From: Lepidodermella squamata
Lineage: Eukaryota > Animalia > Gastrotricha
DNA length: 64,000 nucleotides
Assembly: GCA_047495785.1 (NCBI GenBank)
Contig: JBLDXI010000004.1
Coordinates: 2,046,001 to 2,110,000, forward strand
Direction: 5' to 3'
Part shown: piece after piece, positions 889-51,276 of the stretch
Position numbering within the stretch: the first letter of the stretch is position 1
Layout of the letters: each line of letters begins with the position of its first letter
The notes under the pieces: model-generated
Seen by the model: only the letters and a program-made list of their open reading frames with translations
Told to the model about the DNA's origin: nothing
Database searches by the model: none
Position numbers and translations under genes: made by a program

Positions 889-1493
889 TGAAAGCGTTGA
901 ATGCAACCGCACCACAGTGTGTGACTGAATTTGTGATCAGTGAATCACCCTACTCTTGTATCAAATGCGTGGGCAAAAATTGATCAATCAACAAACCAGC
1001 CTGATCTAATAAGTCATTAAGGCTCAAATACGTGATTTCTAACTTTTCTTTTTGCTCGTTGATGCTATTAAAACCAGGCTCTGTGCATGACGACTCTGTT
1101 TTCAATGTACGTGATTCCATATTCTTGGCTGAGCTAAGAATAATTTCAGCTAATTTCCGCGTGCTTCCATGCAAGGAAATTAACATTCAATGAAGAAAAC
1201 CGGAAATAACTCGGCGCAAGGTATTTCGATAATTTTGTTATTCCACCCGGTTTGATTTTCTACACAAGAAAACTACCAATCGATAGCGACATTGAGCTGG
1301 TGAATGGTTGTAGTCGATCGATTGCTAAAGTAAGCAAAGACAGCGGCGTCTAGTGGGCTGGCGTTAATTATTAATCGAAACTCTCCAAAGTGATTGCTTT
1401 GCAACGCATACTACACTTGGCGCCACTACGTAAGATGAAGTGATGGCAGGGGGCAGGGCAATTTTTTATACATACTGCTGATTAGAGTTAGCA

Positions 1494-3085: not shown

Positions 3086-3279
3086 AAAACCTTTTAATAA
3101 AGACGAAACAATGAAGTGACCGTTCAACTATCATTTGCCCTTATCTGCGAAAAATATCATGTTTCTAACCCCTTTTAAAAACGTCGAAGGTTACCCTCTG
3201 CTCTCTGTTAACACTTATCCTGTCTTTGCGTGCGCGTGGGGATAACAAGCTGTATAATCATTGGATTTGGAATGTATCC

Positions 3280-3580
3280 GCTATCACAAGTCCGTCTTTA
3301 TCGGCCATAGTTAGCTGAGACAATGACGTAAAACAGCTCACGTGCCGCTTCTATCTACCTTTTTCGGAAGAAGTTCACGCAATAATGACCTCCTATTCGG
3401 CGTCACGTGATTTGGACAGCCAGTACAGCCAATATATAACCGGACTGTGTAAACTTTGAATTAGAGTGAGACAAAAAAGCGACTCATTTGATAAGACAGC
3501 TGCAGGCGATAAGACGAAAAAAGCCCGATAGCTATTCTCATCCTCGCTTTATCAGTCGCCAGCTTTTCACAAAACCAGTA
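3280..3580 (+). promoter_or_regulatory. Putative ABCC promoter/5' UTR conserved between duplicates
   Basis: Near-identical to ~45940-46250; contains TGACGTAA, two CACGTG, CCAAT followed by TATATAA, and GATAAG motifs. Confidence 0.55.
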
Positions 3581-6500
3581 ATGTCAAATGAATTTTGCAA
3601 GTCTGAATTTTGGGTAAGTTTCACGGCTCGTCATTGAAAAATGTGTAAAATCCCACTTATTACAGGACGTTGATCTAACATGGAACACAGATTTCCCGGA
3701 TTTCACGCCATGCTTCGAGAATACAGTGCTCATCATGGCGCCGTGCGTGATTTTGGCCCTGACAGCGCCCATCTACCTGCTGTACATTTTCAAGTGTCCG
3801 ATGAAGCGGTCAGACCCGCTGCCGCTGACTAGACTCGGCGCAATCAAATCAATTCTATCGATGGCACTTACCTTCTTCGCCGCAATGAACTTTTTCAGAA
3901 CTGTGAGTGAAGAAGTTTCAGGCCTTGAGCCTGAGCTGTCTTACTATTTCGGACCTCTAATTCAAGCTCTAACTTTCATTTGGACGATAATACTGATGCA
4001 TTTGGAGCGGGAGGCCGGTGTCATCAATTCAGCGCCTCTGTTCCTATTCTGGGGCGTTTTGTCGATTTTGGGTATTGCCCAACTCCTAACTTATGGCCAA
4101 TCGCCGGGCGAGAATGATTCATACAGAGTCGTAGTATTCAGCATCTACTACGCCATACTGGTCATTCAACTCGTGCTTTCGTGCCTGATCGAGGCGTTGC
4201 CAAAACGCTTGAGGGACGACATGAAAATCTCACCCGAAGCCAGGGCCAGTTTCTTGTCTTACCTCTCTTTCCACTGGGTCACGTCGCTGTGTTGGCTTGG
4301 CTTCAAAAAATCCCTCGTGCATTCAGATCTACCGAAACTGCATCCTCGGGACGTTTGCAACAACGTCGTGCCTCAACTCGAGCGGCATTGGTACGAAGAG
4401 CTGGAGAAGCGTAAGAAATTCCGCTCGGTCCTACTCGATCAGCCGGCTCGCAACGAAAAGGACAGCCTTGTTTCATCACAACAAGCTAAAAAGTCGTATC
4501 AATCCGCTGCCGCCGATCAACAAACTGTGACGATATCAATTACAGGCAAGGAATACGAGCCGTCCATTGTGAAAGCCCTTGCGAAGACCTACTGGCCGCG
4601 AATCATTCTGTCGAATTTGGGCCGGTTGATCTTCGACCTGTGCAACTTCATGGGCCCAGTGACGCTGCAGTGGATGATCAGCTACACGAAGGACACGAAT
4701 GAGCCGAACTGGCACGGCTACATCTACGCTATTGCCATTTTTCTCACCAGCATCACTGGGTCGTTCTCGTTCAACCAATTTTTCCATCTCATGATGGTTA
4801 CCGCTAGTCACATCAAGTCATCAATGCTGACTCTAATCTACAAAAAGGCGTTGACGATGAGCAACGAAGCTAGGCGGCAATCGACTGTAGGCGAGGTTGT
4901 TAACCTAATGGCAGTAGATACCGAGAGAATCTTGAACTGCCTACCCTTCACCTGGGTAATCTGGTCAGCGCCACTCCAGATCACAATTGCCATGGCTATG
5001 CTGTGGAACACGGTTGGAAGCTCGGCGTTAGCTGGGCTCATCGTCCTGGTGTGCCTAATCCTGATAAATATCGTCGTTTCAACGCTGATCAAGCGACAAC
5101 AGGCGAAGCAGATGGTGTTCAAGGACAGGCGGCTGCGTCTCATGACCGAAATTCTCATGGGCATCAAAGTGTTGAAGCTGTATGCGTGGGAGAACTCATT
5201 CGTTGACCGCATCAAGTCATTCCGCGAGGAAGAACTCATCCTGTTGCGACGATCGGCCTACCTGAACGGAGTCTCGCAATTCACGTGGGTCTGCGCTCCT
5301 TACATGGTGTTGGTCGCCACGTTCACAACGTATACGCTAACCTCACCGGACCCGTTAACTCCAGAAAAAGCTTTCGTTGCTCTGTCCCTTTTCAATCTGC
5401 TGAGGGGACCGCTTGATATTCTTGCGATGGTCATTTCGCAACTCGCTCAGGCCTCTGTCGCGATTCGTCGACTCGGAAAATTCCTTCGCAGCACTGATTT
5501 AGACCCGGAAGTTGTCGATCGTATCAAGGACATGTCCAACGACGCGACTGCGATTGAAGTCAGCCGAGGTAAGTTCGCGTGGAACTTCAACGACAACGCT
5601 GTTCTGTCGAATGTCAACTTCAAAATCGGGCGCGGCAAACTGGTTGCGGTTGTCGGACCAGTCGGCTGTGGCAAGTCGTCCCTCCTCGCAGCTATTTTGG
5701 GCGAACTCGAAAAGGCAGCTGGCAAGGTTTCTGTCCGAGGCTCGACAGCCTACGTCGCGCAGCAAGCCTGGATCCAAAATGCAACTATTCGGAATAACAT
5801 TCTATTCGGCAGTGAATTCGAGAAGAACCGCTACGACCAAGTTATCGAGGCGTGTGCGATGAACCCTGACCTTCAGATCCTGGACGATGGGGATGCGACT
5901 GAAATCGGCGAGAAGGGCATCAATCTCTCCGGTGGGCAGAAGCAGCGAGTGTCGTTGGCTAGGGCTGTCTACGCGGATCGGGACATCTACCTGCTAGACG
6001 ACCCGCTCTCGGCAGTCGATGCTCATGTTGGCAAGCACATTTTCGACAATATCGTCGGGCCGAATGGGATGTTGCGCAACAAAACGCGAGTTCTGGTCAC
6101 GCACGGCCTGCAGTGGCTGCCGCGGTGCGATGAGATCATCGTCATGCAGAATGGCACCATTTCGAACATTGGCTCCTTCCGGGACTTGATAGCAACTGAT
6201 GCGACATTTGCTGCGCTGATCAAAGAGCATTTGGCTGAGGCTGGTGGAGCGGAGGCGCTGGCGGAAGTTGAGCTGCCTCAACAAGCGCTGGAACTACTGC
6301 GACAAATTAGCAATGAAGATAGTAAGAAACAGCCAGCTGAGGAGGCTAAATCATTGACGGCCTCAGCTAATTTAACGTCTTCGATCAGATCTCGAAAGGC
6401 TAGCAAAGCTGCTGAGATTAAGAAGCCTTCGATCAAAGGCCCGCCTCCGCCGACGAAATTGATCGCCGATGAGAAGCAACTGACAGGCGGGGTTAAAATC

Positions 6501-8321
6501 GCTGTTTACTGGTCGTTTTTCAAGGCGCTGAACCTGGTGTTCTTCGCCTGCTGGGTCGGTTTCTTCCTCGGCAGTCAGGGCTTTTCAACTTTCGGCAGCA
6601 TTTGGCTGACAACTTGGACTTCGGACCCGCTCCTAAACAATGCAACGCTAGCTAATACAACCGAGTACATGGATAAATCGAACATGTACTTGGGCGTGTA
6701 TGGTGCTGCTGCAGCCGGCCAGGCGTTTTGCATCCTCATGCAGTCGCTGTTTTTCGCAACTTCGTCAACCAAAGCAGCGAGAACTATGCACCAGGCCATG
6801 TTGGTTCGCGTCATGCGATGCGCGACCGCCTTTTTCGATACAACCCCCATCGGCCGCATCCTAACGCGATTCGGTCGAGATACGGACGTGGTTGATAATT
6901 CGATTCCCCAAGTCATGCGATCTTGGATGACATCCCTCGTAAGTTGATTTCAAATTCGAAAATCATATTTAAATCATTTTTACTTTCAGTTTCAAATCCT
7001 GATGTCGATTTTCATTGTGATCTACGGCTTCCCGCTGTTCGCCATCGCAGCTGTGGTCATGGGCGCTTTCTACTACTTCGTGCAGCGGTTCTACATCCCG
7101 ACAACGCGGCAGCTGAAGCGCATCGAATCCGTGACTCGAGCCCCGATCTACAACTACCTGGCCGAGACAGTCACCGGCGCAGCGACTATTCGAGCTTTCA
7201 ACGCCCAGGGCCGATTTCAGGACGAACTGACGAAGCGCATCGACACGAATCAAATGAGCTACCTGCCGAGTTCTTCTTGCAACCGCTGGCTGGCGATTCG
7301 GTTGCAACTCATCGGAAATCTGACGGTTTTCGCCGTATCGATGCTTGCGATTTTCTACCGAAGCACGACAAACAGCTCGATAGTCGGTCTAGTTCTGTCC
7401 TCGTCACTGCAGGTCACCAATTCCCTGACGATGTTTGTTAGGCTATCCTCCGACTTGGAAGCGAATATCGTTTCGGTTGAGCGAGTTCAAGAGTACGCCG
7501 TTCTGCCCAGTGAAGCTGACTGGGAAGTGCCGGAGAGGTCGCAAGGCCGAGATTGGCCTAAATCTGGACGAATCGCCTTCGAAAAGTACGAAACCCGCTA
7601 CAGGCCCGGGTTAAAGCTGGTCCTCAACGGCATTTCGTGCGACATTAAGCCCGGCGAGAAGGTGGGCATTGTCGGCCGAACTGGGGCTGGCAAATCGTCG
7701 CTGACCCTAGCGTTATTCCGGTTGATTGAGGCAGCAGGCGGGCGTATTCTGATCGATGGCGTTGATATCGCACAGTTGGGGCTGCATCAACTGCGGTCGC
7801 GACTGACGATTCTACCCCAGGATCCTGTTGTGTTCTCGGGCACGATCCGCCACAACCTAGACCCGTTCGACCGGCACAGCGATGCGACGCTGTGGGAGGC
7901 GCTCGACCACGCCGGCCTCAAAGATTTCGTCGCCGGTTGCGAGAAGGGCCTGTCGCACGAGTGCGGCGAGAACGGTGAGTCGTTGTCTGTCGGCCAGCGG
8001 CAGTTGCTGTGCCTTGCGAGAGCGTTGCTTAACAAGACGAAGGTGCTGGTGCTCGATGAAGCGACGGCGGCGGTGGACGTGGAGACGGACGAGCACATCA
8101 TGAGCACGATCCGGCGCGAGTTCGCCGACTGCACGGTGCTGACGATCGCGCACCGCCTGCACACCGTCATGGACTCGGACCGCATCCTCGTGCTGGACCA
8201 GGGCCGTGTCGTCGAATTCGACTCGCCCGCTGCCTTGCTCGCCAATCCAGACTCTGTGTTCGCTGGCATGGCTCGATCGGCGAAAGCTCGGCCAGGTGGT
8301 GGTGATGAACTTGAAGGTTGA
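3581..8321 (+). CDS. ABCC1-like: ABCC/MRP1-like long-form ABC transporter, ~1545 aa; exons 3581-3613, 3666-6938, 6990-8321
   Basis: MRP1-type N-terminus (FC..FWD...TWNT.PDFT.CF.NTVL), TMD0, NBD1 GPVGCGKSS/LSGGQ/LLDD, NBD2 GRTGAGKSS/LSVGQ/VLDE; two ~50-bp GT-AG introns. Confidence 0.96.
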
Positions 8322-8837
8322 TTCAACACTGAGCTGTGATCAATAGTATGTATATTTGAGATTCCAATAAACGCCATTTTTCCATTGATTCTCAATGAAT
8401 AAGCGCTTGGTATTGCATTTAAAGCGAAAAATGCGAAAATGAATTTTTGATAATATGATGTACTTTCATACCAGTTTTTACTTGTCAGTTGCGTCAATTC
8501 AACTATACTCATCATTTAGATATTTTCAAGTGAAAAACTGATGATGGTCACAAAACTAAGAAAGTAGCAAGTCTTGATGAATCATTTCGCACACATAAAA
8601 CTACTCCAGTCAGATTGGTCTTTTTTATTTATCTAGGCCATTTTATAGTTTGTGTTGGTAAGCAGAGTATAAGTCCCAGTTTTGTGACGATACGAGTTAG
8701 ATTTATTTTCAAATTCACAGTTATTTATAGTGACAATTGTTTGGTAAACAATAATGATTAATGACAAGCTATCGATAATGAGCGTCGATGCGGTTTTGAG
8801 AATAATATATTAATATTTAACAATTAAATATCGATCA

Positions 8838-11800
8838 CTTTTCACTTTTTCATTTTGATTCACTTTTCACTTTTTCATTTTGATTTACACATCAATTTTA
8901 TCGTGTTTTTCACGTGTTTTATCGCGTGCCTAAAATGGTGCTCGAAAAAAAAGATCTCAGCGAAATCAACAAAACTGTTGAGGCTGCTATCGATAAAGCC
9001 TTCGGTCCAATAATGACCAGGCTGGACCAGCTGCTTTCCCGCGTCGAGTTTCTAGAATCGAAAATCGAAAAACAAGGCGAGGTTATTCGTAATCAAGAAA
9101 AAAGGCTTTATCAACTCGAGATTCGACTCAACGAAGCTGATGAACACCGCTATCGCAATACGGTCATCTTGCACAACGTCGAGCCGGTGGCTGGAGAAAC
9201 GGCTACTGTTTTGGCCCAGCAGATCGAGGCTAAGTTTCCCGACCTGGCTGGTACCGAATACGATTGTTACCGTTTTTCGAAAAAGTCGCCGAAACTGGTC
9301 AAGGTTGTTGTCAGGGGCCAACAAGCGGAGCAGGTGGTTCGGAAAGTGCTGGCTGGTGGGTCGGCCAAAAAGTTTCAGACGGCCTTCAGGCGTAAGGTTA
9401 ACAGGGCTCTCACGGCTAAAATCCAGGCTCTTGAGGCTCTTCGTCGTGACAACGGCGAATGTAAGCTGAGTTTCAGAATTCGGCAAAATGGGTACCGGCT
9501 CGACACCGATGATCACGGCTCGTTTATGTACGACGGCAAAAACGACCGATTTTCCTCGCTCGAGAGCATACAAGCTTCCGACAACATCACAACATCTCGT
9601 CGCACACAACAGCCGCCACCGGCGTAGGAACCTGCAGGACTAACCCTGAACCCGTCTGTTCTTTTTCAACTATTTTTTTTTACTGTTTACAGTCTTAACT
9701 GTCGGAGCGTTGCCAAGCATAATTTAGCAGCTTTAACAGCCTTTTTATTAACATGCAACTATGACATAATCTGTTTGTGCGAAACCTGGCTTCACCCAGG
9801 CATCCCTGATGCTATGCTCGAAATAGGTGATTATCGCGTTGCGGTCCGTCGTGATAGACCGTCTCGCGCTGGTGGGGTTTGTATTCTCGTCAACAAAAAG
9901 ATCAAATTTTATAAAATTGACCATGTTGATAACTGCTCTGAAATTGTTGCCATTAATGTTATCTCGTCATTTCAAATTGCCTGTTTGTATCGTCCTCCGT
10001 ATAATGACGTGCCATATCTAAATCGCTTAATCAAATGTATAGATAAGCTGTGTGAATCTACTACGTCTCCGATTCTGCTTGTGGGTGACTTTAATTTTTC
10101 TGAGATTGATTGGAAAAACGTTGCTTCGTATGAATTTAGTAATATTCATGAAACTCTTGAAGACTCATTTATGTCGTGTTGCTTGAGAAATTCACTGTTG
10201 ATGTTGTGTGCTTATCTGATCTCGAAAAAGCCGAGGCACTGAATGAGCAATTTTCGTCGGTGTTCACTATTGATAACCAGTCTCTACCTTCAAGTATTAA
10301 TAATATTGTCAAAGCTAACTTTCATCTCTCTTCCGTCGAAATCAATGAAGAAATCGTTTTAAATACTCTACTCAACCTCTCCGATTCGTACGCCGTCTGT
10401 CCGGATGGTCTTCCGACTATCTTTTTCAAAAAAATAGCTCGTTCTCTATGTAAACCGCTGGCACATGTCTTCAAATCGTCTCTAAGTCTCGGTACCTTGC
10501 CGGATATTTGGAAGATTGCCTCTGTCACGCCAATAGCTAAAAAACCTAATTCTAAAAAACCTATTGATTATCGCCCTATCTCTCTCACCTCCGCTGCTTG
10601 TCGTACCCTTGAAAAAATAGTTAAAAATGCAATTCTAGATTTTTTACTAGCTAACTCTATTATCACTTCTGAACAACACGGTTTTCTTCTACGTAGATCT
10701 ACTGCTTCACAAATGCTAGAATGCACCCACGACTGGTTCTTTGCCTTGGAATGCGGCGAGTTTGTCGATATTTTATACATAGACTTTGCCAAAGCTTTTG
10801 ATACCGTTTGCCATTCCAAACTTCTTAAAAAACTAGCTCAAATAGGTATACAGGGTGATCTTTTGAATTGGATATCCTCTTATCTCTCTAACCGTTCACA
10901 ATTTGTTGTAGTTAATAATTCCTCAAGCTCACACTCGCCGGTTACCAGTGGGGTTCCTCAAGGTTCCGTCCTTGGCCCCTTGCTCTTCCTCATCTACATT
11001 AATGATATCATCCCTATCTTACCAGCTGGTGTCACAATTAAACTCTTCGCCGATGATTGCAAGCTTTACATTAAATTCTGCTTTAATAATGCTGCTTCTT
11101 TTGTCTCGAGACTATCATTAGCGCTTGATAATATCTTCGCCTGGATAAACGACTGGCAGCTCAGCCTTTCTATTGACAAATGTGGAGTGCTTCACCTAGG
11201 CCGTAACAATCCTCAATTTTCTTATACTCTTGGTTCACATCAACTTTCTATCTGTCACTCGTATAAAGACCTAGGTTTGATTATTGATGAAGATCTCACG
11301 TTCCGCCCTCATTTTAATACTATTGTTACCAAAGCTTATAACTGTGTCAACGCTATTCTTAGAGCCTTTCATGGGCAGTCGCCTTCCGTTCTCACATGGG
11401 CTTATCGAGTCTATTCTAGGCCTCTACTCGAATACCTTCCTTCGATTTGGTCTCCTTACAAAAAAGGCGATATTGAACTCATTGAAAATGTTCAAAAATA
11501 TTTTACTCGCCGTGCTTTAGGCTTCTCTTCGCACGATCTCAACCGCCCTTCTTATAAACAAAGGCTTCTAATTCTCAAACTAGATTCTTTGGAAAAACGT
11601 CGCATTCTTCTAGATCTCGCCCTTTTATACAAAGTTTACTACAAAGCTATCGACTCGTCAATATCCTTTTATATCGAGCCTCTTGAGACAATATCTCGCG
11701 GTCATACTCATCGCCTTAGATATCGACGACCTGATGGTCGATACCGCAATGCTACCTCTCCTCTTTTTGCCAACTATTTTTTAAATCGTGTTTTACCCAT

Positions 11801-12140
11801 TTGGAATGAATTGCCTGCCTATGTGTTTCCGTCCACGGACAATTTCGATTCCAATCTTAAATTTTTTAAATCAAAAATATGTAAACTTGACTTTTCTAAA
11901 CACTGCACTCTCGACAACTAAATTTAAATACATTTTCTACCTAATTTCTCTATGATTTTGATATATGTTGACTCTCCTCTTGACTGTTCTATACGCTATC
12001 ATATTGATTACTATACGGTTCAGAGTTAGTGGCCTGCGGGTCCTTCTGTATCCTCGAATCTTTTTTACTGCTTAATTCCCCTGATGAATTTATTTTTCGA
12101 AATAAAATAATAAAAAAAAATAATAATAAAATAATAATAA
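8838..12140 (+). mobile_element. CR1-clade LINE inserted into the copia 3' LTR (ORF1 ~8935-9627; APE ~9680-10190; RT to 11921)
   Basis: Coiled-coil ORF1; APE motifs CETWL, GGV, YRPP, GDFN; RT motifs YRPISLT, DFAKAFD, GVPQGSVLGP, FADD, SRGH; (TAA)n tail. The APE end jumps out of frame to EKAEALNEQFSSVFT, indicating an internal deletion. The LTR resumes after the tail. Confidence 0.93.
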
Positions 12141-12281
12141 TCAAGTATTTATATCGAATAATAACCTAATCAACTTTCAACACTCCTCCTATTGGGTTAT
12201 TATAATCAGAATTATTTGGACAATAGTCAAGTCATCAATTGAGTACAAGTACTTTACAAAAAATCAGATTTAGGTGCAATC

Positions 12282-14508
12282 TTACAAATTAGCAACATCG
12301 TGGTAGCTGTGTGCTTGTTCAGTTTCGGCTTGTTGACGTGTATTAAGAACGCTGCTTAGTGGTAGTTCGATTGTCGTTCGGTTGGCCGGCACAGAGCATT
12401 TGAAAAATTTGAGTACAGTGCTCCCTCGATTAGTGCACGGGGTCGGGGCTGTGGGCCGTGCACTTATCTAGGGATGGAGCTAACGAGGGCTGTTAAAGAG
12501 CTAGCGATGAATCATAAGTGCGTAGCTACGTTTTTTTCTTAGTTGCTAAGGAGACGTTGTTTTTGGTGGTTAGCCATATCTAAAAGCTAAGCCAGAGATC
12601 ACTTTTAAAGGATGCGTATTTTTCTCTTAAAAGCATCTGTTGCCAGTAACGAATTTAAAATGATCGTTGGTCCACTAGGGTCATTTGAATTGTGTTTCAG
12701 ATCGATGGCCTTTGGCCTTTTGGAGCAATTATGGTAATCAGGTGGCTTTTCTCATGATTATCAATACCGAAATAATTTTTTAAATCGGGCTGGTAGTTGT
12801 TATCATGTCAAATTTAAAGCCGAATCAGTGCTCGAATAAATTCGAGATTTCTAGAATTTTCGCACTATAAAATTCTGTGCCACGCCAATTTGTTCAACAG
12901 GAGCAAAAATCTAAGCATTTGTGATTTGTGATATGTGATATTTCTCAAAAAAACTTATAACTTATAACTGATTTTAGCCACATTTTAACAGGATGAGCAA
13001 GCTAGTTTAAGCCAAAATTACACTTCTATCAACGAGCTTTTCTTTTGAAATTTTTGTTAAAACGAATTTAAGATTATAAGCGCTGAATAATCAATCAATT
13101 TGTCTTCACGCTGAACAGCATCGTAAAGCACGCTAACTGATAAGTCATTATATCATCCACTATCTACCGTTCCATCAATGAGATCGTAGTAGTTGTGAAT
13201 GAAAAAAATCACGAATAAGTCAGACGCGTGCACACTATCAATCGATCTCTCAATGATTTGAGATGAAAAAAGCTGATCTGTAAAGATCGAGAGATCACGT
13301 CACCTAAAGCCTAAAACTGCCGGGTTAATAATTAGACATGTGAAACGTTTATCGCCTTCTGCTTATTCCAATATTCCAACTAAACTAGGCCGGCCTTCAT
13401 CAATGGGGTAAGCTTCCTTATTAGAGAGCGAAATTTGTTCAAAAAAAAAACAAATTAGCTGTTGAAATTCCTCGCGCCGGTCCAAGCTTCACCGGCACCG
13501 CCTTTTCATTGCGAAAAAGCTGATGTGGCTCAGCCAGCGTTGCTAATGAATACATTTTCTTGAACTTTAATAAATTTAATTTTGTAAATAATTTTTTCTT
13601 TCACTAATAAAAATTATTTAATTGCCAATTTTGAGGGGGCTGGAATAGTGTGGCAGATAACGAGGGAATTGCACATAGCCGGGGTGCACTTAGCGAGGGA
13701 GCACTGTAGTAGAAACAAATGCATCGCGCAGCTCGCTACTGCCATACAGAATGCAGACCAAGTAATATTATCGATGTCGACGTTCGGGATGTATAGAGCT
13801 GTTTTGCTATCTTCTTCGGTTTTGACTCGCAAGCTGCTGGTTTTTCTGCCATAACAGCCGAGTGACGTTGATTTCCCTAGCCAGATCCGAAATCGACGAA
13901 TTAAATGCTCCGAGAAGCAATTGCTTATTATCCTTATTAGTTGTATTGAATATTGAGAAAATTAGACGATGCAGTTTCAACTCAGTCGTTGTTTCATTTA
14001 AAATATTTTCGAGTGCAATACTTACGATCTCGGCTTCCTCGCTCTCTTCCCTAGCCAATTCGTTGATTCTCGCGATTGTACAATCTCGCAATATGGCGTG
14101 ATTCCAGAAAGATTCGCAACTTGTTCTTTTAGATTTTTGACCTGAAATGTCATCAATGTCGATAGAAGTTCCCAGCGGCTCGCCGATTGAAGAAATGGAG
14201 CCAGCGCGTAAAGTTCGTCGCTTTCGTCCTGCCATTCCAAGCTGTGGTAGATGCGAACGATACGTTCCTCCTCCTCGTTGCAACCATTCAAGACGTTCAG
14301 CATGGCGTGAATATGGCATTGCGTTCGGATTTGGTGTGCTAGGCGCTTGCATCGCTAGCGCGGTTGTCGTCCTGTCATTAATGTATGCCAAATGTCCTCG
14401 TTGAGAAACCTCGCGTTGATGATTGAAGAATAAACTTGAAGAGACTTTCAAATCCGCTTTCGTTGAGTTACAAATAGAAAAACAGAGGCATAGCATAAGC
14501 GCCGTCAT
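12282..14508 (-). pseudogene. Env-like type I membrane glycoprotein (~310 aa) in frame with pol, disrupted by one frameshift and a 1.3-kb insertion
   Basis: MTALMLCLCFSICNSTKA, RKRR, sequons NET/NTT/NSS/NVT/NIT; after removing 12416-13708 it reads ITWSAFCMAVASCAMHLFLLLKFF-KCSVP...SYHDVANL*. Confidence 0.65.
12416..13706. mobile_element. Non-autonomous Tc1/mariner/pogo-type element
   Basis: TIRs CAGTGCTCCCTCGATTAGTGCAC / GTGCACTTAGCGAGGGAGCACTG, TA on both sides, no coding capacity. Confidence 0.88.
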
Positions 14509-15595
14509 AACGCTTTTGCTGAAAACATTTTGCATACCCATAGCAGCTCTGAGTTTTTCAAACCTAATTCTTGGTAGCGGCTTGGTAAGAACATCCGCAA
14601 CGTTGTCTTTAGTAGGGCAATATTCAATCTTGACAGTTTTGCTTTCGTACAGCTCGCGAATGAATGCCAGTCGAATACCAACGTGTTTCGTACGACTTTT
14701 GATGATCGGATTTTTCACCAAAGCCAATGCAGCTTGATTGTCGCAGTTGATCAAGAATTCTTCCGTTGAATCTTCGATTTCATCGAGAATTTCCTTGTTG
14801 TAGACAGCTTCTTGACATGCCGAACTCAGTGCCATTAGCTCAGCTTCGGCGGTCGAAAGAGCTACGCTTGTTTGTAACTTCGAGAACCAATTGACTGCGG
14901 TTGGTCCAAATAGAAACGTGTAACCACTCGTTGATCGACGCGTATCTCGACACAATGCGAAGTTAGCATCCGCATATCCAGTTAGAATTGAGTCATGCCT
15001 GCGAGGATAACAAAGACCAAAATCAATGGTACGCAGAATTCTCAGGGCTGCGTTGAGGTGGCTCGCGTTCGGCTGACTGCAGTATCTCGCCACATTGCTT
15101 GTTGCGTGGGCGATATCGGGTCGAGTTCCAGTAGCCGCATAGATTAGCGACCCAACTAGAGATTGATAGTGCGTGCGATCGACAGGTTCACTTACGTTGT
15201 CATCCATGACTAGATGAGTAGCGCCGAAAACAAAAATTTGCCGGAGGCAACAATCAAAAATTCCAAACCCGCCTTTACCTTTTCGAGATAACGTAGTAAA
15301 ACACCCCAGTTGAACAGCATCTAAGCAACTGTAAGGCCGACGTCCTCGAGCTTGGTGTCATTCGATAGCCCGTCATTTCAATATGCCAGCAAACCTTTTT
15401 CAGCCAGTTCGGGTGATTTTCCTATTTTTGGTGAATTCTTGAATGATTTTGTCGAAGTTGTTGCTGTTGTCGATCGATTGGAAAAAATCGATAATCGATA
15501 ACGAAATATAGGAGGATAGTGGTGTGCGCTTAAAAAATGAGGCTTGTGAAAAAAACGTTGCCCTAACGTTGCCCTCCCCCATGTGGTGGGATATA

Positions 15596-16151
15596 CAGTG
15601 TGTCCAAAAAATTTTGCAACATTACAAATCAATGCAGCTCCCTCATTTTGGCGAATTTTTCCATGATCAAGACAGATTCTGAAAGCTCAAATCACCGCGT
15701 TTTTTTCGATATCCATTTTATAAAAATCAGCCTTAAAATGAGTGCACAAACAAAGTTTGAAATGAAAAAATGCAATTTCTTTTTGACAACGACTTTTTCA
15801 CCGCTATTTTCGTTGTTTAATCGTTGCATGTGGCCTCCAACGGTCAAAGCCCGTATAGTTGAGCTTTACTTTACTCACGGCAACTCTCCGACGTCTGCCT
15901 GCAGAGCCTTCCGGCTCGAAAACAGAGGCTCAACCAGTTTTAAAGTTCCGGATCGTTCGTTGGTATTGAGATGGGTGTCAAATTTCCGGCGACGAGGATT
16001 AGTCAAGAACAATCGAGTTCCACATAAGAAATCGAAGTCAACGCCTGCAGTCATTCAACGAGTTCGACGAAACATCAAGCGTCGGGTTAAACTCGGGCGA
16101 AGCACCGCGTGCATTTTAAACGATGGTGGACATTTCGAAAAGTCGTTGTAA
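15596..16151 (+). mobile_element. Internally deleted Tc1/mariner transposon
   Basis: TA|CAGTGTGTCC left end; HTH-type N-terminus (IVELYF..RWVSNFRRRG) fused directly to C-terminal CILNDGGHFE; DDE domain missing; right TIR not found. Confidence 0.75.
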
Positions 16152-16585
16152 TTTTGAAAATTATTTTTCCCAAACCGTGTCCATAGGACACTCGTGCGAA
16201 CTAACAGGGTTCCCCACGGGCTTCAAAATAACAAAATGACAAAAATAGATCCACAATAAGATACGAGGCATTTTGGGACCATTTTCAGACCCAAAATTGA
16301 AAGAAAATTGTCATTTTCGCTCGCGAGTGGCGTTACGAAGACGTTTAATTACAGCCTCTCTGATTAAGGGACGGTAATCGGTAATGTATACAATTAATAT
16401 TTTAAACTGATCCATGACTTATGTCTCCTGCTATTTATTCAATCCACCTTTATTTTGGTTTGTGTTTTTTGAATAAACCAGCCAACGAATTGGACCAAAG
16501 ACATTCTCAGTCAAACAGTTGATCAAGCTCCACGGCTTACGATGGTCTCAAAACTAGAGCGGCATTCACAAAATGTATGTGCGTT

Positions 16586-16795
16586 GCATAGCGCAGCCAC
16601 TTTTTACCGTAGCCAAGAAAATCGCACAATAGAGCAAACGAATTGCCCGCACAAAAGGATAAACTTTTTGGGCCAATATTTTTTATTTCCTAAATGAAAA
16701 ATATTCGCCGAAAAATCTGTTCGCGTTCCCTTATTCAAATTACGGGCTCTATTGTGAGATTTTCTCGGCCTCGGTAAAAAGTGGCTGCGCTATGC
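16586..16795. mobile_element. MITE with ~50-bp imperfect TIRs
   Basis: GCATAGCGCAGCCACTTTTTACCG / CGGTAAAAAGTGGCTGCGCTATGC; flanks TGTGCGTT / TGTGCATT (7/8 match). Confidence 0.75.
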
Positions 16796-17080
16796 TGTGC
16801 ATTCCTACGAAACTCACCCAAATCTGGAAATGGTCTAAAGGCAGCAGTCAACTCGGATTCTGAATGCTCCACGGTTAACAAGTGCTATGAAGTACTTTTA
16901 GGTCAGGTTATGCCATTGATTACTCGGGTTTAGGCTGTATTCGGTGGTGAAATTATCCGACCTAAGGAGTGTTGGCTGTAGCTTGCAATGACCTCCTTAA
17001 CAAGCCTAAGGCTGAGTTGTTCGGCGATGTCAGCGAAATCTATTTGCTTTAGTGTGTAATTTGCTTTAGTTGTTTTTGTA

Positions 17081-17417
17081 ATTATTATTATTATTATTAT
17101 TATTTTATTTCGAAAAATAAATTCATCAGGGGAATTAAGCAGTAAAAAAGATTCGAGGATACAGAAGGACCCGCAGGCCACTAACTCTGAACCGTATAGT
17201 AGTCAATATGATAGCGTATAGAACAGTCAAGAGGAGAGTCAACATATATCAAAATCATAGAGAAATTAGGTAGAAAATGTATTTAAATTTAGTTGTCAAG
17301 AGTGCAGTGTTTAGAAAAGTCAAGTTTACATATTTTTGATTTAAAAAATTTAAGATTGGAATCGAAATTGTCCGTGGACGGAAACACATAGGCAGGCAAT
17401 TCATTCCAAATGGGTAA
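17081..17417 (-). mobile_element. 5'-truncated copy of the same CR1-clade LINE
   Basis: Reverse complement of ~11793-12120 including the (TAA)n tail, nearly identical. Confidence 0.92.
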
Positions 17418-20400
17418 TCAACTCGAATAACTCGTATTCGTAAAGACGAATCTATGTGTTCACTGAGGGCACTGAATGGGAGGGGGCCGAAACACCCCTC
17501 CCGTTGGGAGGGGCTTACGGGGTGGGATGGCATGCTGCGCAGTGGACACTAACCACTAAACTATAGAACCGAAAAAAGCTGCTCGCTCTTCGGTATGCTG
17601 GATCGCTTGTCGATTCCATCGGTGTTGTGGCCGTGTGAGCCTCGACAAGTTGAAATTTCGTAAGCAACTTTTCGATGTAAGTCCTTTGGTAGAGGCAAAT
17701 CGCTTCATCGGTAAGCCTCACGTTTAGGCCGAGAACGAAGCTTGTCGGTCCCAGCAGTGTCATCTCAAATCGCTTAAGTAATTGAGCCTTAACTTCTTCG
17801 ACAACTTCTTTTTCGGGGCTTATTATGACTAAATCATCAACATAACAGCATATTAGGCACACGCAAAGTTTCCCGTTTTTGCTAATTTTGCGATAAAACA
17901 CGCAGGGATCGGCCTGAGAGCTTTTGAAACAATTCGTGCTCATAAAATAAGTTATTTTTAGATTAAAGTTCCGAGGACTTTGACGAAGTCCATAAATCGA
18001 CATTAGGAGCCGACAAACTACTTTCTGATTTTCGGGGTTATGCCTGTTTTGATGCTTATCTTGCAGCAAATTCCCCCCCTCGATCGAATCGAAAACGAAA
18101 CCCTCCGGTTGAAACATGAAAATTTCTTCCTCAAGATCCCCGTAAAGAAATGCCGTTTTAACATCACAGCTTTCGACAAAACAAGAGTTCTTAGCTGCCC
18201 ATGCTAGTGCCAATCTTAAGTTTTGCATTTTAACTACCGGGGCAAAAGTTTCATTAAAATGAAGAAAGGGAATTTGGTGATTGCCAAGTGCAACCAGGCG
18301 GGCTTTCCATTTATCAATCATTAAGCCCTTACCCGAGACGTCAGGCTTGTATTTGACACGAAGAACCCAGCGACACTTGAGAACCGGCTTGTTCGGCGGG
18401 CGATCAACCAGTTTCCAGGTGTTGTTCTTGATGAGCGAGTCGTACTCCGACTGACAGGCCTTGTGCCACTCGGCGGCGTGAACGCTGTCCATTGCCTCGG
18501 CGAACGTGGCAGGCTCATCGATAGCCGTTACCGCGAAGGCCGTCGGACCAGTCGTAGGCTCGTCATTTTCCGGTGCCAGAGTAAGAGCCGCAGTCCCAAG
18601 CGTGTCGAAATCATCCCAGTCATCGAACGTGTACTTTGCTGTCTTCGTAGATGAAGGAGCTGTAGGTTTCGGACCTTGAACACCAGGTCTCGTGTAATTT
18701 ATGCCCTCTTCCTTCGGTGGCGGCACCCTAGCCGATCTGCGCGGTTCCGCAGGCGCAGGCGCAGAAGTAGGACGCGGTGCAGACGCAGACGTAGTAGCAG
18801 TCGTTGTTGTAGTAGTCTTACGCGGCGCCGTAAGCGCGCCAGACGTAGTACTAGACGAAGAAGTGCTTTTCAGCGGCGTTGCGGGCGGCGCACTTGTAAT
18901 AGGCGGCGCAGCCGGCGTTGCGCGAGCAGGCACTTCCGGATGAGCAACCGCTTTGTTTTCATCGTCCACAGTAATAAGCGGGCCAGAAAACAGATCAGGT
19001 TGACGAATAACAGGCGATTCGTCAAATTTAACGTATTTTCTAATCACAAACGTATTATTAGCTGGCGAAAACAAACGATACCCATCGTAATTTTCAGGAA
19101 TTCCAACAAAGATGAATTCTTCAGTTTTCGAGTCCAATTTGTCGCGAAATCGGTCTTCAGTGAAAGCAAACGCGCGGCATCCCCAGGGACGTAGTCGTGA
19201 GATATCCGGCTTGCTCCCAAACATCATTTCGAAAGGCGTCTTGCCATTAAACGCCCGAGTCGGAAGTCGATTTCGGCAGTAATTGACGTACTCGAAACAG
19301 CAAGGCCATAATCGTTTTGTTAGGCCAGTTTCATTAAGAGCGGTCCGTCCGCCCTCAACGATAGTGCGCATTTGTCGCTCGATCGCGTTTTGTTGCGGCA
19401 CATAAGGCACGCTAAACTCGCGAGAGATGGAATGTAGCCGGCAGTACTCGTCCCATTGAGACGATTTGAACTCGAGGCCATTGTCCGATTTCAGATAGAC
19501 CAAATTAGTGTTCAAACGAGCGGTCATTTGAGTATGAAAAATTTTAAAAGCATCAATAGCGTCGGATTTCTTGGCCAAAAACTGAATGTGAGTCCAGCGG
19601 CTGTAATCATCCATAATCAAAACGAAGTACAACTTGCGCGTGAACGATTCGACGCTGAATTTGCCGCACAGATCGATGAAACAGCGCTCCAGCACACGCT
19701 TGCTTCGAATCTTCACAGAAAAATGAGGTTCTCGTGATTGTTTGCCAGCAACACAGGGCTCGCAGAAACCAAGTTGCGTTTTCGGGTCGATTTTGAAACC
19801 CTCAACTTGCTTCGCCATAGTTCGCAATTTCTGCTCGTTGCAATGCGCCAAACGACGGTGCCACAAAGAAATCGGTTCGGCCGCGATGGCCGGATCACGT
19901 CAGCGTCAAGAATGAAGATCTTGCGTAGTAGGTAAGCTGCTCCGATCAGCTTGTCGTTGCTCTTATCAAAGATTTCACAACGATTTTCGTCGAAAATTAA
20001 TCGACACTCCTGGCTCTTAATGGCTGCACCTACAGAGAACAAACTGCACTTTAAATCAGGGACGAACAGTACTTTTTGCAGCAAAACGATTTCTTGCATC
20101 GCCAGCCGAACTGTGCCAATGCCAAGACATGCCATCGGCTTTCCATCAGCCGCACGGACCGGTTCGCTGTCCTCAGGTAGTTCCTCGTAGGACCAGAACA
20201 TCGAGATTTGGTTCGTCATGTGCTGCGAAGCGCCGGAGTCGAGCACCCATCGCTCGTCCGACTCGTACTCATCGTCGTAGTGCACCATCGGGCTGTAGAC
20301 GCGCTCGCCGTGCTCCGCGTCGTAGTCGTCCGTCACCATCTTGGCACGCGGCTTACCGTAGTAGCCACCCGACGACTTGCCTGGATTGCGCCCGTTGTTG

Positions 20401-22169
20401 TAGTTACCATTGTTACGATTGTAGCCATTGTAGCCGCCGTTTTGACGACCATTGCCGCCAGAATTCGCTTGCGGCTCCTTCGGAGATCGGCATTCGCGCT
20501 CGAAATGCCCCAGCCGACCACAGTTCCTACACGCCATGGTGGCCTTCTTATTGTTACGGAACTTACCGTGGCCTGTTTTCAAAGCCACGTCTGAACTCGT
20601 ACCGCTCGCTCCATTCGATTTGTTCGATTTCAGAGTGAGACGTCGTAGATCCTCGGTTGCCAAGGCAGCCTCGACATCAGTTAAATCGAGTTCGAAATTC
20701 GCAACGCCGTTACCACCTGGTTATAACTGGCCGGGAGACTATTCAAAATAAGTACAATATATTGAGAATCCGGCAGGTTCGAGCTTAACGCGGTCAGTTG
20801 ATCGCGAATTCGCCTCAGACGATGTAGGTGATTCGTAAGGGATTCACCCTCACGTAGCGTCGTAGTAAAAAGTTGTTGTGTTAAATACATCACGTTACCA
20901 GTCGACGGATTCTCAAACCGAGCCTTGAGTGCAGTCATGATTGTCTTAGCGTTGTCCGAGTCAGGCAGCAGCCCAAGAATTGACGCGGAAATACTGCAAA
21001 TCATGTGACCTGTTGCGCGAAGGTGCTTCTTCAACCAAAGCACATGCGCAGCCGGTTCGACCGTCGGCGAAGCAACGCGGTCCCAGTCGGGTTCGGGGTC
21101 GGTTCCAGCAACAACACCCCAGAGATCAGCCGACACGAGATTGATGCGAACTTGCTTGAACCATGCCGTCCAGTTATCAGCTCCAGTAAGAGTGATAGGA
21201 TCACTTTTAAGGTGGTGGTGGTTGTCAGTCATCGTATGAATACAACCAACAAAATTTAAGGTAGCGAATTTACGGCAAAATAGAGCGAAAAATACAGCGG
21301 TGAAATATTGCTTAGTTGCAAAATTCTGGGCCCATAACCAATGTTGGTAAGCAGAGTATAAGTCCCAGTTTTGTGACGATACGAGTTAGATTTATTTTCA
21401 AATTCACAGCTATTTATAGTGACAATTGTTTGGTAAACAATAATGATTAATGACAAGCTATCGATAATGAGCGTCGATGCGGTTTTGAGAATAATATATT
21501 AATATTTAACAATTAAATATCGATCAAGTATTTATATCGAATAATAACCTAATCAACTTTCAACAGTTTGCGAAGAAGCACAGTTGTTCCAAGCACAGAA
21601 GAAGCAGGAAAAGGGCTTTCTATACTTAATAATCCAGAGAGAAGCGCTCAAGTTATGCAGACGAGCTTCACATTTTTCTAAATGACCAAATGAATATGTT
21701 TTATTTTACGTCCTCCTTTCGGGCATTGTGATGGTAATTGAATAGAAAAAAAGGAGAAAGCCTTACCTGTGAGGGTTTAGGGGACGATTGACGGCACATT
21801 TTTCTAAATGTAATTGAAATAATAATAAATATTAATAATTATGTAGGAAGTGTGCTGGAGATTATACAGAGTTGGCTTTCAAACATGGATTCTTAATACT
21901 AGCATAGCAGTTAAAGCAGCAGCAGCAGCAGAGTCGCTGGTTGCCGACGCCAGTTTGCCCGCAGTCTTCCACGGTGCAATCGTCGCAAGTTATTCAACCT
22001 CGATCTCTGATCGTGCAGTTGTTAGCGTAGTTGTTTTCACTGAAGAAAAACGTAAAAGAATGATATAAATGGAAAATGCGAGTTTAAGCTTGAAGTATCA
22101 CTCACATTATGCAGTTCTGAAAACGGATATACACGTACTGTTGCGGCGGAAATAAGGAATGCACGTCGA

Positions 22170-23752
22170 TAATAAAGGATTATTCTATAGCTAGCCATAG
22201 AGAAATGAAATTTCAGCTATAGAATAATGCTATTCCTACATACGCACGACACCTCTAGGCCCCCTAAAAAGGGTGCAATGGGTTCATAAGGGTGATTTCA
22301 GGATAATCATTTCGAGAAAATAAAACATCCAACTCAAAATTTCACGAAAACAATTCTTCGTTTGAAAACGAGAAACACTTTTCATTCGCCGATTTTTTTC
22401 TTGTTTCCAACTTGATTTTTGGTAAACCTTCATTCGTCGTCGAAATCTTCATGATCTCCGGCTGGCCGAAGCATCAGTGGTCAAGACTCAAGTCCCAAGA
22501 TCATCAGTTGCCATGGTTTGATCGATTCTGGAAACGAGCGTTGCCTCTCAATCATGAAGCCACTCAAATCAGTCGCTTGCCAGCTGGGTTCACGCAGAAA
22601 TCAATGCATCTCTACATCGCGGCTTGCGGCGTTTGGAAGACTGGCAAAAGTAGAAGCCATCAGCGATATCCAGGGCGCGGCGGAAAATAATCATGGATTT
22701 GGGTCAATTTTGCCGATCGAAGAATCGCCGAGAAACCAGTCATCGTCGCCTTCAACGTTGCTATGGCTAGTCGCTGAATTTCCGTTGCTGCTCAAAACCG
22801 CGAATTTGGAGGGAAAACCGGATCTGGGAACGTTCATAAAAGACGTCCGAAATTGTTCCACTTTTTTCGACCCCCACCCTACCTCTTGTCCTACTTTCGA
22901 GCACCCCCCTCAAAATTTTCTTGAGAAACGTAGAAATTAGCTTTTGAACTGTGCGAGGCTTGAGAGTATGTAGTCCTTTCTATAGCTGCTAGCCGCCAAC
23001 AGTCATTGCAGGCATTTCCATGGGGCTTTTCACTGTCTCATTTTTTGGCATTAGTGCGCGTTGGGGAGAAGAGCGGGCGACTAAATGACACTAACTGATT
23101 GGTGCACTAACAGCCAATCCTAGTGCGTACATTTGGGGACCTATTGGCATTCAATTTAACTCGCTCTCTGATTGGTTGAAATACACGGGCGCGACAATGT
23201 TGGCGTGCGTAGACGCGCGGCTATTGGTTGCGTAACAGGTGCGCGCAATGATGCCGAGTGCGCTGCGCGGACTAATGCCACACTCAACAGCGCACTAATG
23301 CTGCTGCTGTAGCTACTGCTGTTTGCTCTCGTCCGACTCGTTGCGTACCCCCTAGGCCCTGTTGTCCGATTTTCGGGACCCCCCACCCCCCCCCCCCTAA
23401 AATCTCGGACGTCTTTTATGAACGACCCCTCTGCATCGCGACGGCTATCAGCAAGAGATTTTGACGACCTCGATTTTTGCCTAATTTTGTCAAATTTTTC
23501 TGTTTGCACGTGAAATCCGTGAAATTGCTTTCAAGTAAAATTTAGTTTTTCGCTGTTTTTGTGACTTTCCTACGATCCACGGGAAAATGCGTTTTGTGGG
23601 GTTTTCGAGGCAAATTCTGAGCAAAATGCTGGCCAAATTTGTGGCAGTTTCATGCCATAGAGAAATTATTGGTTGCCATAGAGAAATTCATTGTAACCAT
23701 AGAGAAATCAAATTTCCCAATGGCTAAATTTTACCATGCGTATGTAGGAATA
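22170..23752 (-). mobile_element. Helentron/DINE-like non-autonomous element in an intron
   Basis: Inverted TATTCCTACATACGCA (22231) / TGCGTATGTAGGAATA (23737-23752), outer hairpin TATTCTATAGCT..AGCTATAGAATA, CCATAGAGAAAT repeats; absent in copy B. Confidence 0.5.
22826..23429. mobile_element. PIF/Harbinger-like MITE
   Basis: TIR GGGnnCGTTCATAAAAGACGTCCGA, 3-bp TSD TCT. Confidence 0.8.
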
Positions 23753-26700
23753 TTTGTATCAGGATGAAAAGGTGTGAAAACGTGACGTTAATGATTAGGC
23801 TAACCTCTGCGGATTGCAGTTGCGATGGAGACAGTTCAAACAGTTGCTGAGAACGGTAGCTTGATTCTTGCCGAAATTCCTCGCAGTTCGTTCGCACATT
23901 GCCTCGGTGATGTTTACTATGGTTTCGCACGATATTTGGCAACTTGACGTTGGTGCAATTCTCAGGCTGGTCGGTGGCGTAGTCGATCCAGGCTTTGCAC
24001 TTGGTCTGGTTTGTATTCACTTTTGGGCTGTAAATAAAGCCGATATGAGCAACAATGAAACACTCTACGTGTATTATGATTCGACTCACTCGTACAAGGC
24101 CGTGTTGTTCACGCTCAAACACCTGCGTACGTACGCGAAAGCAAGTTAAAGTAGGTAAGGCATTCAGCAGGTAAAAAAGTGTGAATTCTCACCGATGGCA
24201 CAGCAGAAGCTGCTTGCCCCTGGATTCTTGAGCCAGCGACGACGAGTGATTCGAGAGATTCGATGAGCATCTCGTCCTGCAATCAAAAGTTGCAGGAAGT
24301 TACAAGAATGCTGTAAGATATAGTATTAGGATAGTATTAAAAGCAGCTCACCTAATGATGTTACTGACGGTTCTGGCGATGTTCGTGCAAACTGCAAACG
24401 TTCGATGGCTGATTTTGCATCGATGCGAAAGCAGCGAGACACACCACGGCAGTAGCCAATCTCGCGATCATAATTCAGTCGGTTGTTGTTGAACGTGCGA
24501 TGAGTGAAATGCAGAAATGTCTGCAGAGCGCCTGTATATATATTTTATAGCGATCGGTTGTAGCGAGCGGCGCGCGCCATACTCGCCGCCGAGGTCGCGG
24601 CAAACGAACGCCGGTAGACTTAGTTAGTTGAAGCTGAAGTTGAGCGTCACGAAACCTTTGTTGGCAGCAGAAATAAGTGCCCTGTGTAGTAGTAGTAGTT
24701 AAGTCGTAGTAGGAAAAGCAGTCAAATAGCCAGCAGCATCGTGTTGCGTTCTAGTCACTGGCGGCAGCTGTAAAGACGTAAAAAAATAGAGAAATTGAAC
24801 AATTAAGAGGCGTCAATTACCGGAGTCGCGCCAAGTCTAATCGAATGAACGTCCGACCATCTCTGCACTCATTGACTCAGCGGGTAGTGTGTTAGATGAT
24901 ACTTTACTATGCTATCATAACACGTGCAAACATGACACGTTGAACGAAAAAGAATGGCATCGTGATGATATTAGAACGAGAAATAACGGAATACTCACTG
25001 GCTATATAGCCATGCAGAAATAAAAATTCCGCCCGATCTTGAACCCCGAGTGAGTTTGGCGAACGAATCGAGAGGTTCCTCAGAGCGGTTCCATCAAAGC
25101 GTTCCATTAGCCGTGCGCGTGTAGGAAGAATAAATCCGACTGGAATATCCATGATCGGCTAGATCAGAAAACAGGAGAATGAAGGGCTCGAGCAAAGAGA
25201 ATGAGAAACGAAAAATTGCATTTGAAACGGCACTCGCGGCCTGCCGTCACTAGAGACGTGACGCAGGTTTAGCTAATATCTAAACATCCGAAGTCCGCAT
25301 GCAGCAAAACAAATAATTTCATGAGGTTCAAATGAATTTTTCAAATATCTTTCAGTCCTGCTCTTCTGGCAATCATAGCTAATCTGGAATCAGCCATGAA
25401 TGAACACTTTGTTGAGCTCATCAACATCAAGTCGGCGATGTGGCATCGTATGAGTGTTCAGTTTTCAATTGTTCAATTGCTTCGCGAGATTCGCGTCGCT
25501 GTTTCACGTAAAGAAGAAGAAAAAACAATGCTATTTTACAATTTTCACGCGCGTCGGTTGTAAAATTTACATTCATGAATGAAACCTAAAGAAGAAGCAG
25601 TTCATGTGCATTGTTTCTGGGGTTTCGTGATAGTCACCTAACTGAGGAAAAATGGCAAGAATATTACACTCAAGCTAAAACTTTGAAGCACAATTGATTG
25701 AAATAAATCAGGCAGAGTCAAAGATAATATGATTCAATAACCGTGTAACGGTGACGGGTTCTCGCGATCACGGGATCATGACCGACGACCCGACTTGTAT
25801 TTTAGGCAAAAACGATTCCCGACAAACTAAGAAACTAGGCGGTTTTATTATTGCTAAGGCTAGGCTAATTCATGATCACCGAAACGGTAGATGCTTATTT
25901 CAAGTAAAATTGGGCTTTTTATAGCCACTTCTAGGCTGTTTCTAGGCTGCCGCGGTGCATTCGATAGATCAGCGTCGTCCTCCTCCTCTTCACGCTCTTC
26001 GAACACGGCTTCGATCACCGATTCTTCGGATTGAATGCTCTGATAATAGTAGCAACAACAACAGATGTTATGAATGATTGTTGATTTTAAATTAGTGGGT
26101 GACCCTGATTAAAATATTATTACTAATAGCAGAATTTAGTAGACGCGTGAAAACAAAAATGATACGACGATTTCTTATAGTGATTAAATGGTTGAATCTA
26201 TGAGAAAAATCATTTGGGGCTGGTGAATCCTTATGTATGGAAATGCGTTGAACCGATTCTAAATAGCACTCACTAGAATTTAAATTTAGACTTTTGATTT
26301 TTTTGTTATCCTATGGTGTGAAAAACGCGATAATTGTACTTACTTTATCGGCCATTTTCTCTCGTTATCTCGTAAAATGTGCTCGCAAAATTTAGCTTGT
26401 CTAGAACATGAAAAAAATGCATGTGAAAATATTTTATTTGCGGTGTCGGCCATGTGATAGGGTGTGTTGGAGTTGAAAATATCTGGGGGTACTCTATTAT
26501 TGTGGCGCTCTATGAATGAATGTGAAAACCGCCCCTGCTTTCCAAGCGACATACGAAGCGATTAAAATCGTAGAGTTCGAGGCGTTTGAGCTTTTATACA
26601 GATCTGTGGCGCGCTTTTATTATTATATTGGACACGCATGCCGTGAGTGCGTTCCCCGCCGGGTGGTCACTTCACCCTGGCTCACTTGGCGTGCACGCCA

Positions 26701-51000: not shown

Positions 51001-51276
51001 TTCAACACTGAACTGTGATCATTGTACGTATTTGAGATTCCAATAAAAGCCATTTTTCCATTGATTCTCAATGAAGCGCTTTGAATTGCATTTTAGTTAG
51101 CTAGGTGTGCCTAAAAATGCGAAAATGAATTTCCTTCACACCGGTTTTTACTTGTCAGTTGCGTCGATTCAGCTGTACTCATCATTGAGCGCTTGTCAAG
51201 TGAAAAACTGATGATGGTCACGAGATCAAGGAATTAACAAGTCTTGATGAATCATTTCGCACACATAAAACTACTC

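Follow-up and report, generated by a model that had tools for sequence, protein, structure and literature searches.

Introduction

The F-type envelope protein (Env) of errantiviruses is encoded by a separate open reading frame (ORF) on Ty3/gypsy elements (PMC13524379, PMC6563192, PMC6085415), and has an ectodomain of four structured domains with conserved cysteines (PMC13524379, PMC5408684); the F-type Env of TelKA is about 600 residues long (PMC5408684). Errantivirus Env and baculovirus F have in common a cleavage site RxxR and the consensus GxxxxxGxxxKxxxGxxDxxD (PMC6563192, PMC6085415). Among Ty1/copia elements, the plant Sireviruses are given in a review as the only genus that often carries an env-like gene, the function of which is unproven (PMC3414828). 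Here we describe a Ty1/copia element in a 64,000-nucleotide stretch of the gastrotrich Lepidodermella squamata (contig JBLDXI010000004.1, positions 2,046,001 to 2,110,000; hereafter the window), whose pol reading frame is followed in frame by a further coding region (hereafter the extension). The reading that we tentatively favour, with confidence a little short of even, is that the extension is a selected, predicted type I membrane glycoprotein of about 310 residues that signal peptidase likely frees and furin likely cuts, and that probably acts as a surface protein in the envelope slot, serving particle exit or entry. It is env-like by position and layout, not by homology.

Two described systems are closest to this arrangement. 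In SIRE1, a plant Ty1/copia element, pol is followed by an additional ORF with transmembrane (TM) and coiled-coil regions and unproven function, expressed through stop-codon suppression or an internal promoter (PMC3414828). The env-like ORF of the Sireviruses is plant-specific and set off from pol by a stop, whereas the extension follows without a stop and has a signal stretch and a furin site. The bdelloid gypsy elements Vesta4 and Vesta6c carry as ORF3 TM proteins of 210-230 residues in the env position, with little or no homology and an inferred function (PMC5408684). The extension resembles the Vesta4 ORF3, which has RxxR and a coiled coil, as a small TM protein in the env position; these elements differ in that they are not copia and use a separate ORF, and in that Vesta4 has two TM helices ahead of RxxR (PMC5408684). 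Env-like ORFs in copia-like elements are mentioned in a passage of PMC13524379 that does not name the hosts, and our literature search, with most subscription journals and supplements outside its scope, found no paper on an animal copia element with Env fused to Pol.

Results

Layout of the extension

Analysis of the minus strand indicated that the frame 15357-13807 has no stop where RNase H ends (..FEKLRAAMGM) and enters MTALMLCLCFSICNSTKA, with a Met at 14508, from which three pieces (Table 1) give about 310 residues together. The frame thus behaves as the original prediction had claimed, and the signal-like stretch, RKRR, four sequons in the helical part and a fifth, NIT, before the TM helix all lie where that prediction had placed them; the signal stretch and the tail each contain one more sequon. 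Signal peptidase cleavage follows the -3/-1 rule. Directly after RKRR (14226-14215) the protein reads TLRAGSISSIGEPLGTSIDIDD. The single frame break that had been proposed is present within 13830-13860, as is the excisable TA-flanked insertion 12416-13706, which has 25-nt inverted ends with the TA included on each side. Beyond them the TM helix and the tail ending YHDVANL were recovered as described, and the stop lies 90 nt before the polypurine tract (PPT).

None of 20,000 shuffles gave a stop-free run as long as the 235 codons of piece 1. In 5,000 protein shuffles a signal-like peak occurred in 0.8%, a TM-like peak in 1.6% and a furin site in 7.5%, while the three together did not occur once; five sequons are unremarkable (9% of protein shuffles). 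The ectodomain measures about 230 residues and has two lumenal cysteines. A type I glycoprotein layout is supported by hydropathy.

Sister copies and selection

Sister sequences were obtained as contigs of run X1, which contains 65% of the sampled words, and so may derive from the source sample itself, together with diverged sister copies; nothing relevant was found in run X2. In a 283-nt sister contig, 12412 is joined to 13719, the inserted element 12416-13706 being absent and the letter count across the site unchanged; this contig and two loose ends differ from the window in length inside the frame-break interval. Both lesions therefore look specific to the window copy, and the break at 13830-13860 may be an assembly error.

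The 41 single-site differences scored (40 listed out of 81, and one from the 283-nt contig) include 25 synonymous ones, against an expected fraction of 0.23-0.28 (p 2e-7 to 7e-6), and dN/dS (nonsynonymous over synonymous rate) is about 0.2, estimated from unphased contigs of a single run by rough counting of sites. Third codon positions hold 28 of the 41, no difference creates a stop, and at the break the third-position bias moves to the new frame (22 of 31 differences before it, 5 of 9 after it). Of five codons that differ upstream of the furin site, one is changed synonymously, and 149 nt there take the place of a 140-nt stretch with the frame kept, while over the furin site and the next 26 residues the changes are almost all synonymous; a variable N-terminal part followed by a conserved cleavage site and segment therefore fits a cleaved precursor. 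The frame conservation on which the original prediction had staked the extension was thus borne out, and purifying selection on the extension is supported. At the RNase H junction, sister records 4 and 5 end at 14539 and record 7 starts at 14521, without gaps.

The same data bear on the suggestion that the frame runs on by chance into DNA that is non-coding or was captured neutrally, or that the assembly is at fault. Such an explanation would suit a copy whose long terminal repeats (LTRs) are near-identical and which nonetheless has several frame breaks and nested insertions, but it is refuted by the synonymous excess, and the frame-keeping length change, the third-position bias on both sides of the break and the sister contig that bridges the insertion also speak against it.

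Record 6 of run X1 (1249 nt) is about 80% alike over 146 nt (window 14316-14461), and at its loose end a diverged homologue of the extension runs on in register; its sequence suggests a more distant subfamily.

Copia polyproteins with Env-type tails

A search for over-long copia polyproteins gave 119 matches; the end of RNase H could be located in 114, and 41 had a tail of more than 120 residues. Twenty-four of these form one family with a signal stretch at the RNase H junction, a basic site, sequons, a TM helix and usually a hydrophobic peptide. The tails of 23 (P0126-P0165) are 550-655 residues long and fall into two subfamilies, while that of P0184 has 323 residues with a furin site at about 105, a size and spacing that match the extension. 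P0184 is clearly related to the long tails (34 bits; HHalign 92%); it keeps the cleavage site, the hydrophobic peptide and the next helix, runs from there straight to the TM helix, and sits among Env-less relatives. The extension shares with these tails (e.g. P0134, P0143 and P0184) the in-frame position after RNase H, the signal stretch at the junction, the sequons, the C-terminal TM helix and the basic cleavage site, which in the tails lies at about 105-165. On the contrary, the 23 long tails have 7-14 cysteines and most have a hydrophobic peptide after the cleavage site, while the extension has about 310 residues and no such peptide. Among the 120 polyproteins nearest by RNase H, 111 end at most 30 residues past it and the other nine lack such a layout. 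Eight Env-bearing copia polyproteins had no Pfam fusion-protein match, and a profile of whole Env-bearing polyproteins matched only Gag and integrase among the best 60 of 195 rows against PDB.

Two trees of reverse transcriptase (RT) plus RNase H were constructed, the first with 195 of the 226 rows that contained both domains (a drop list comprised 38 ids, chiefly near-duplicates from plants and oomycetes) and the second with a chosen subset of 36. The RT phylogeny that the original prediction had called for placed the element apart from the Env-bearing copia, though not decisively: the long-Env elements form a clade (0.999 in the first tree, 100/99 in the second) and the window element lies outside it in both, although grouping the two is not rejected by the approximately unbiased (AU) test (p 0.079). 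A nine-member group around the element in the first tree had no support in the second. The RNase H of the element is about 50% identical to that of Env-less copia, against a median of 35% and a maximum of 39% to Env-bearing copia.

These comparisons raise the question whether the extension descends, much shortened and diverged, from the putative F-like Env of other copia elements, as P0184 does. Its slot, length and furin position are those of P0184; hmmsearch and HHalign both align C-x3-W-x3-I..EL (residues 138-164) with one subfamily's pre-cleavage helix; pairwise shuffles gave p <=0.05 in 6 of 24 cases, and the AU test does not reject the long-Env grouping. However, all profile scores are at background, with a hidden Markov model (HMM) score of -0.3 bits, reached by 54 of 500 shuffles, and HHalign values of 0.84%, over the signal stretch only, and of 0.2-0.5%, where P0184 reaches the 34 bits and 92% given above. 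The pairwise registers are inconsistent, the best match falls to p 0.085 on piece 1 alone, and both the trees and the RNase H identities place the element with Env-less copia or outside the Env-bearing clade. We consider such a descent improbable. A pairwise match to P0141 and a local likeness to the copia Env pre-cleavage helix were also tried as candidates and failed the profile and shuffle tests.

Comparison with errantivirus Env and baculovirus F

The original prediction had taken G-x-D-x-D for a fusion-peptide motif and the whole layout for that of errantivirus Env and baculovirus F. The published consensus is a different one, as given above. The likeness consists of a predicted signal peptide, RxxR (kept in a sister contig), a predicted C-terminal TM helix and a partial G-x5-G spacing; with one Asp in register, three of the six fixed consensus positions are matched, which was equalled in 1% of draws from the lumenal part and in 10% of shuffles of the same segment. 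Neither the K nor the third G nor the last D is present, no Pfam match was found, and the large multi-domain ectodomain of F-type proteins (PMC13524379, PMC5408684) stands against about 230 residues with two cysteines here. True homology with errantivirus Env or baculovirus F is thus largely refuted and appears very remote, and judged by its sequence the extension cannot be recognised as an Env of errantivirus, baculovirus or copia F type.

What stands of the proposed enveloped copia that frees Env from its polyprotein is a selected, in-frame extension with the expected layout. Release from one polyprotein by signal peptidase is also plausible, because 24 copia polyproteins carry a clearer Env-type tail in the exact slot. 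Kinship with F was not borne out, and membrane fusion is only conjectured.

Envelope protein or accessory protein

Since the extension shares its position with the 24 comparators, a role as an envelope protein may be proposed, and a number of observations weigh against it. As generic features, TM helices, sequons, cleavage sites and coiled coils are no proof of Env (PMC5408684). Hydropathy over the 20 residues after RKRR is 0.43, and 0.10 after a second basic site, KSKR, against at least 0.86 in 21 of 23 copia Env tails, for which the best candidate site was taken, a choice that favours those tails; small size and a weakly hydrophobic candidate fusion peptide were caveats of the original prediction itself and they hold. 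The TM peak reaches only 1.9, where 23 of the 24 Env-type tails have 2.1-3.2, the signal peptide and topology calls are based on hydropathy, and the scores against profiles of Env-type tails are at background. The dN/dS value carries the limits stated with it, and that sister copies, too, run past RNase H without a stop is something we infer from contig ends and gap-free alignment. Lastly, no homologue of the extension was found among 1.84 billion protein representatives.

The large searches used piece 1 as query, pieces 2 and 3 being searched in Pfam. No homologue was found among 197 candidates, and there was no match in Pfam, in PDB sequences or in IMG/VR and JGI contigs. In the ESM Atlas all leads were under 0.9, and the nearest features belonged to neuropeptide precursors, with a score of 0.81 that is too low to count. 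Two single-sequence AlphaFold2 models had low confidence, with pLDDT (predicted local distance difference test) of 45 and 55, and the latter shows four short helices and not one long coiled coil. Fold searches with these low-confidence models, which say nothing about the fold, gave no E under 0.001 in BFVD and no match in PDB; in VIA the best Z was 7.5, to generic helical bundles, with no fusogen among the best 50 rows.

Some of these results would equally suit a non-fusogenic accessory protein, either a membrane tether for assembly or a precursor with a shed or exposed peptide that acts on the host, possibly a captured host gene. In its favour are the lack of a hydrophobic fusion peptide, the four short helices, the neuropeptide-like features below threshold and the lack of a viral homologue. 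Against it, the position and the signal-furin-TM order equal those of the 24 Env-type copia tails, and a host homologue was likewise not found among the 1.84 billion representatives, in which the host lineage may be poorly sampled. The neuropeptide-precursor idea in particular is weakened, as the glycine before RKRR, needed for amidation, is changed in a sister contig. An accessory role seems unlikely to us, and we retain the envelope-slot surface protein as the preferred reading. That the protein fuses membranes is possible, but we hold it to be doubtful. It would be a bolder proposal, and one that we consider quite unlikely, that an animal copia lineage captured, independently of the Env-bearing copia clade, a minimal envelope fusogen of an undescribed kind, released from a single Gag-Pol-Env polyprotein and consisting of a shed subunit of about 80 residues, a hydrophilic conserved N-terminus and a helical stalk of about 100 residues.

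Route of expression

If the extension is an envelope-slot protein, full-length RNA would be translated into a Gag-Pol-Env polyprotein, and the internal signal stretch would send the C-terminal part into the endoplasmic reticulum (ER), with a cut after about residue 28, near ..STKA, while Pol stays in the cytosol. Furin would then remove the variable N-terminal piece of about 80 residues and expose the conserved segment on a helical, glycosylated and anchored subunit of about 210 residues. We infer ER entry, release by signal peptidase and shedding by furin from the established biology of these two proteases. At the weakest step of the scheme, the subunit of about 210 residues might be carried on budding particles or vesicles and mediate attachment or entry; in Drosophila, Copia capsids travel between cells in vesicles (PMC11835246).

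A second route, which can coexist with the first, is that the Env-like protein is translated mostly from a subgenomic RNA, spliced or trans-spliced, beginning at Met 14508, with the Pol fusion as a by-product. The element's sense strand has no second site like the heptamer TTTTCAG, and a host intron (49615-49668) ends in the identical seven letters. Most of the protein may thus come from a spliced message; the spliced Gag RNA of Drosophila Copia offers a precedent (PMC11835246). However, the site was noticed post hoc and has a chance of about 1% by composition (our estimate), and the two best gag donor sites (20566 and 20356) are out of phase with the extension. We regard this route as rather unlikely to be the main one, and since there is no stop at the junction, full-length RNA must yield the Pol fusion regardless.

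Structure and age of the element

The complete element lies on the minus strand from 21565 to 8653, and the extension is at its 3' end. Pfam gave the order gag, zinc knuckle, protease, integrase and copia-type RT, followed by RNase H, which is the copia order (RVT_2 E 5e-53), and tblastn to copia relatives agrees. TG..CA LTRs, a 5-bp target duplication, a primer-binding site and a PPT are also present, so the Ty1/copia identity proposed from the start holds. The 3' LTR adjoining the PPT is split by a plus-strand LINE (long interspersed nuclear element), which amends the earlier description.

Table 1. Features of the Ty1/copia element in the window (LTR, long terminal repeat; RT, reverse transcriptase; TM, transmembrane).
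Feature	Positions	Strand	Remarks
5' LTR, 224 bp, TG...CA	21342..21565	-	target-site duplication GTTTG at 21566-21570 and 8648-8652
Primer-binding site TGGTTATGGGCCCAG	21326..21340	-	presumably of copia type
gag (Retrotran_gag_2)	20681..21232	-	frame break to next piece near 20700
Zinc knuckle and protease	19713..20720	-	frame break to integrase near 19880
Integrase, SH3-like domain, RT (RVT_2)	17518..19899	-	Pfam
Nested insertions within RT, about 2.3 kb	15214..17517		include truncated LINE 3' end, 17082-17417
RT end and RNase H	14539..15213	-	about 50% identity to Env-less copia P0006 and P0007
Extension piece 1, 235 codons stop-free	13834..14538	-	in frame with RNase H
Candidate splice acceptor TTTTCAG	14519..14525	-	10 nt before Met 14508
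Predicted signal peptide	14455..14508	-	11-residue hydropathy 2.65; -3/-1 site after ..STKA
RKRR, predicted furin site	14215..14226	-	2 of 2 codons differing in a sister contig synonymous
Conserved weakly hydrophobic segment after furin site	14137..14214	-	6 codons changed: 5 synonymous, 1 conservative
Predicted helical region, four helices (low confidence)	13834..14100	-	C-x11-C pair at start, four sequons
Extension piece 2: linker, NIT sequon, most of predicted TM helix	13707..13829	-	19-residue hydropathy 1.9
TA-flanked non-autonomous DNA element, inverted ends	12416..13706		high copy in run X1; sits in TM-coding part
Extension piece 3: TM helix end and 40-residue tail ending YHDVANL	12282..12413	-	stop 12284-12282
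Polypurine tract TAGGAGGAG	12183..12191	-	
3' LTR part 1	12140..12182	-	43/43 identical to 5' LTR
LINE (ORF1, endonuclease, RT) inserted in 3' LTR	8838..12139	+	
3' LTR part 2	8653..8837	-	184/185 identical to 5' LTR

Because the 5' LTR and the 3' LTR (its two parts added) differ at just one of 228 positions, the insertion appears recent. The window copy is dead, with frame breaks near 20700 and 19880, the insertions in RT and the two lesions of the extension. The LTRs thus differ at 1/228 positions although 8653-21565 contains four or more nested insertions and is interrupted by three breaks of the frame, which means either very fast decay or else assembly errors. The LINE at 8838-12139 is near full-length, and the truncated copy inside RT is a 5'-truncated, 98.5% identical one on the opposite strand; a third, older LINE fragment lies at about 51542-51664.

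Surrounding DNA

The host segment around the element is duplicated at 84-97% identity (about 1100-8600 with 43900-51300, and 21600-25600 with 51480-53850), and the duplicate, some 43 kb away, lacks the copia element. The genes of the duplicated segment encode a Cys-loop receptor (Pfam) and an ABCC-type transporter, in which one intron of about 50 nt was found; a neighbouring protease-like ORF was read by eye. The receptor and this ORF suggest that the host is an animal. An element at 27430-31091 has inverted ends of about 62 nt, a transposase-like ORF (Mutator-like by eye), a Ulp1-protease-like ORF and a Q/P-rich repeat. A long foldback at 39802-40939 has arms of 388 nt, 96% complementary, and inner arms of 98 nt.

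Implications

The novelty lies in a short and apparently unrelated protein that occupies the slot used by 24 Env-type copia tails. If an independently captured minimal fusogen were confirmed, copia elements would have become enveloped at least twice in animals. If the extension mediates entry, it would be a novel small fusogen, and enveloped copia would have arisen a second time, which would bear on access to the germ line or on crossing between species.

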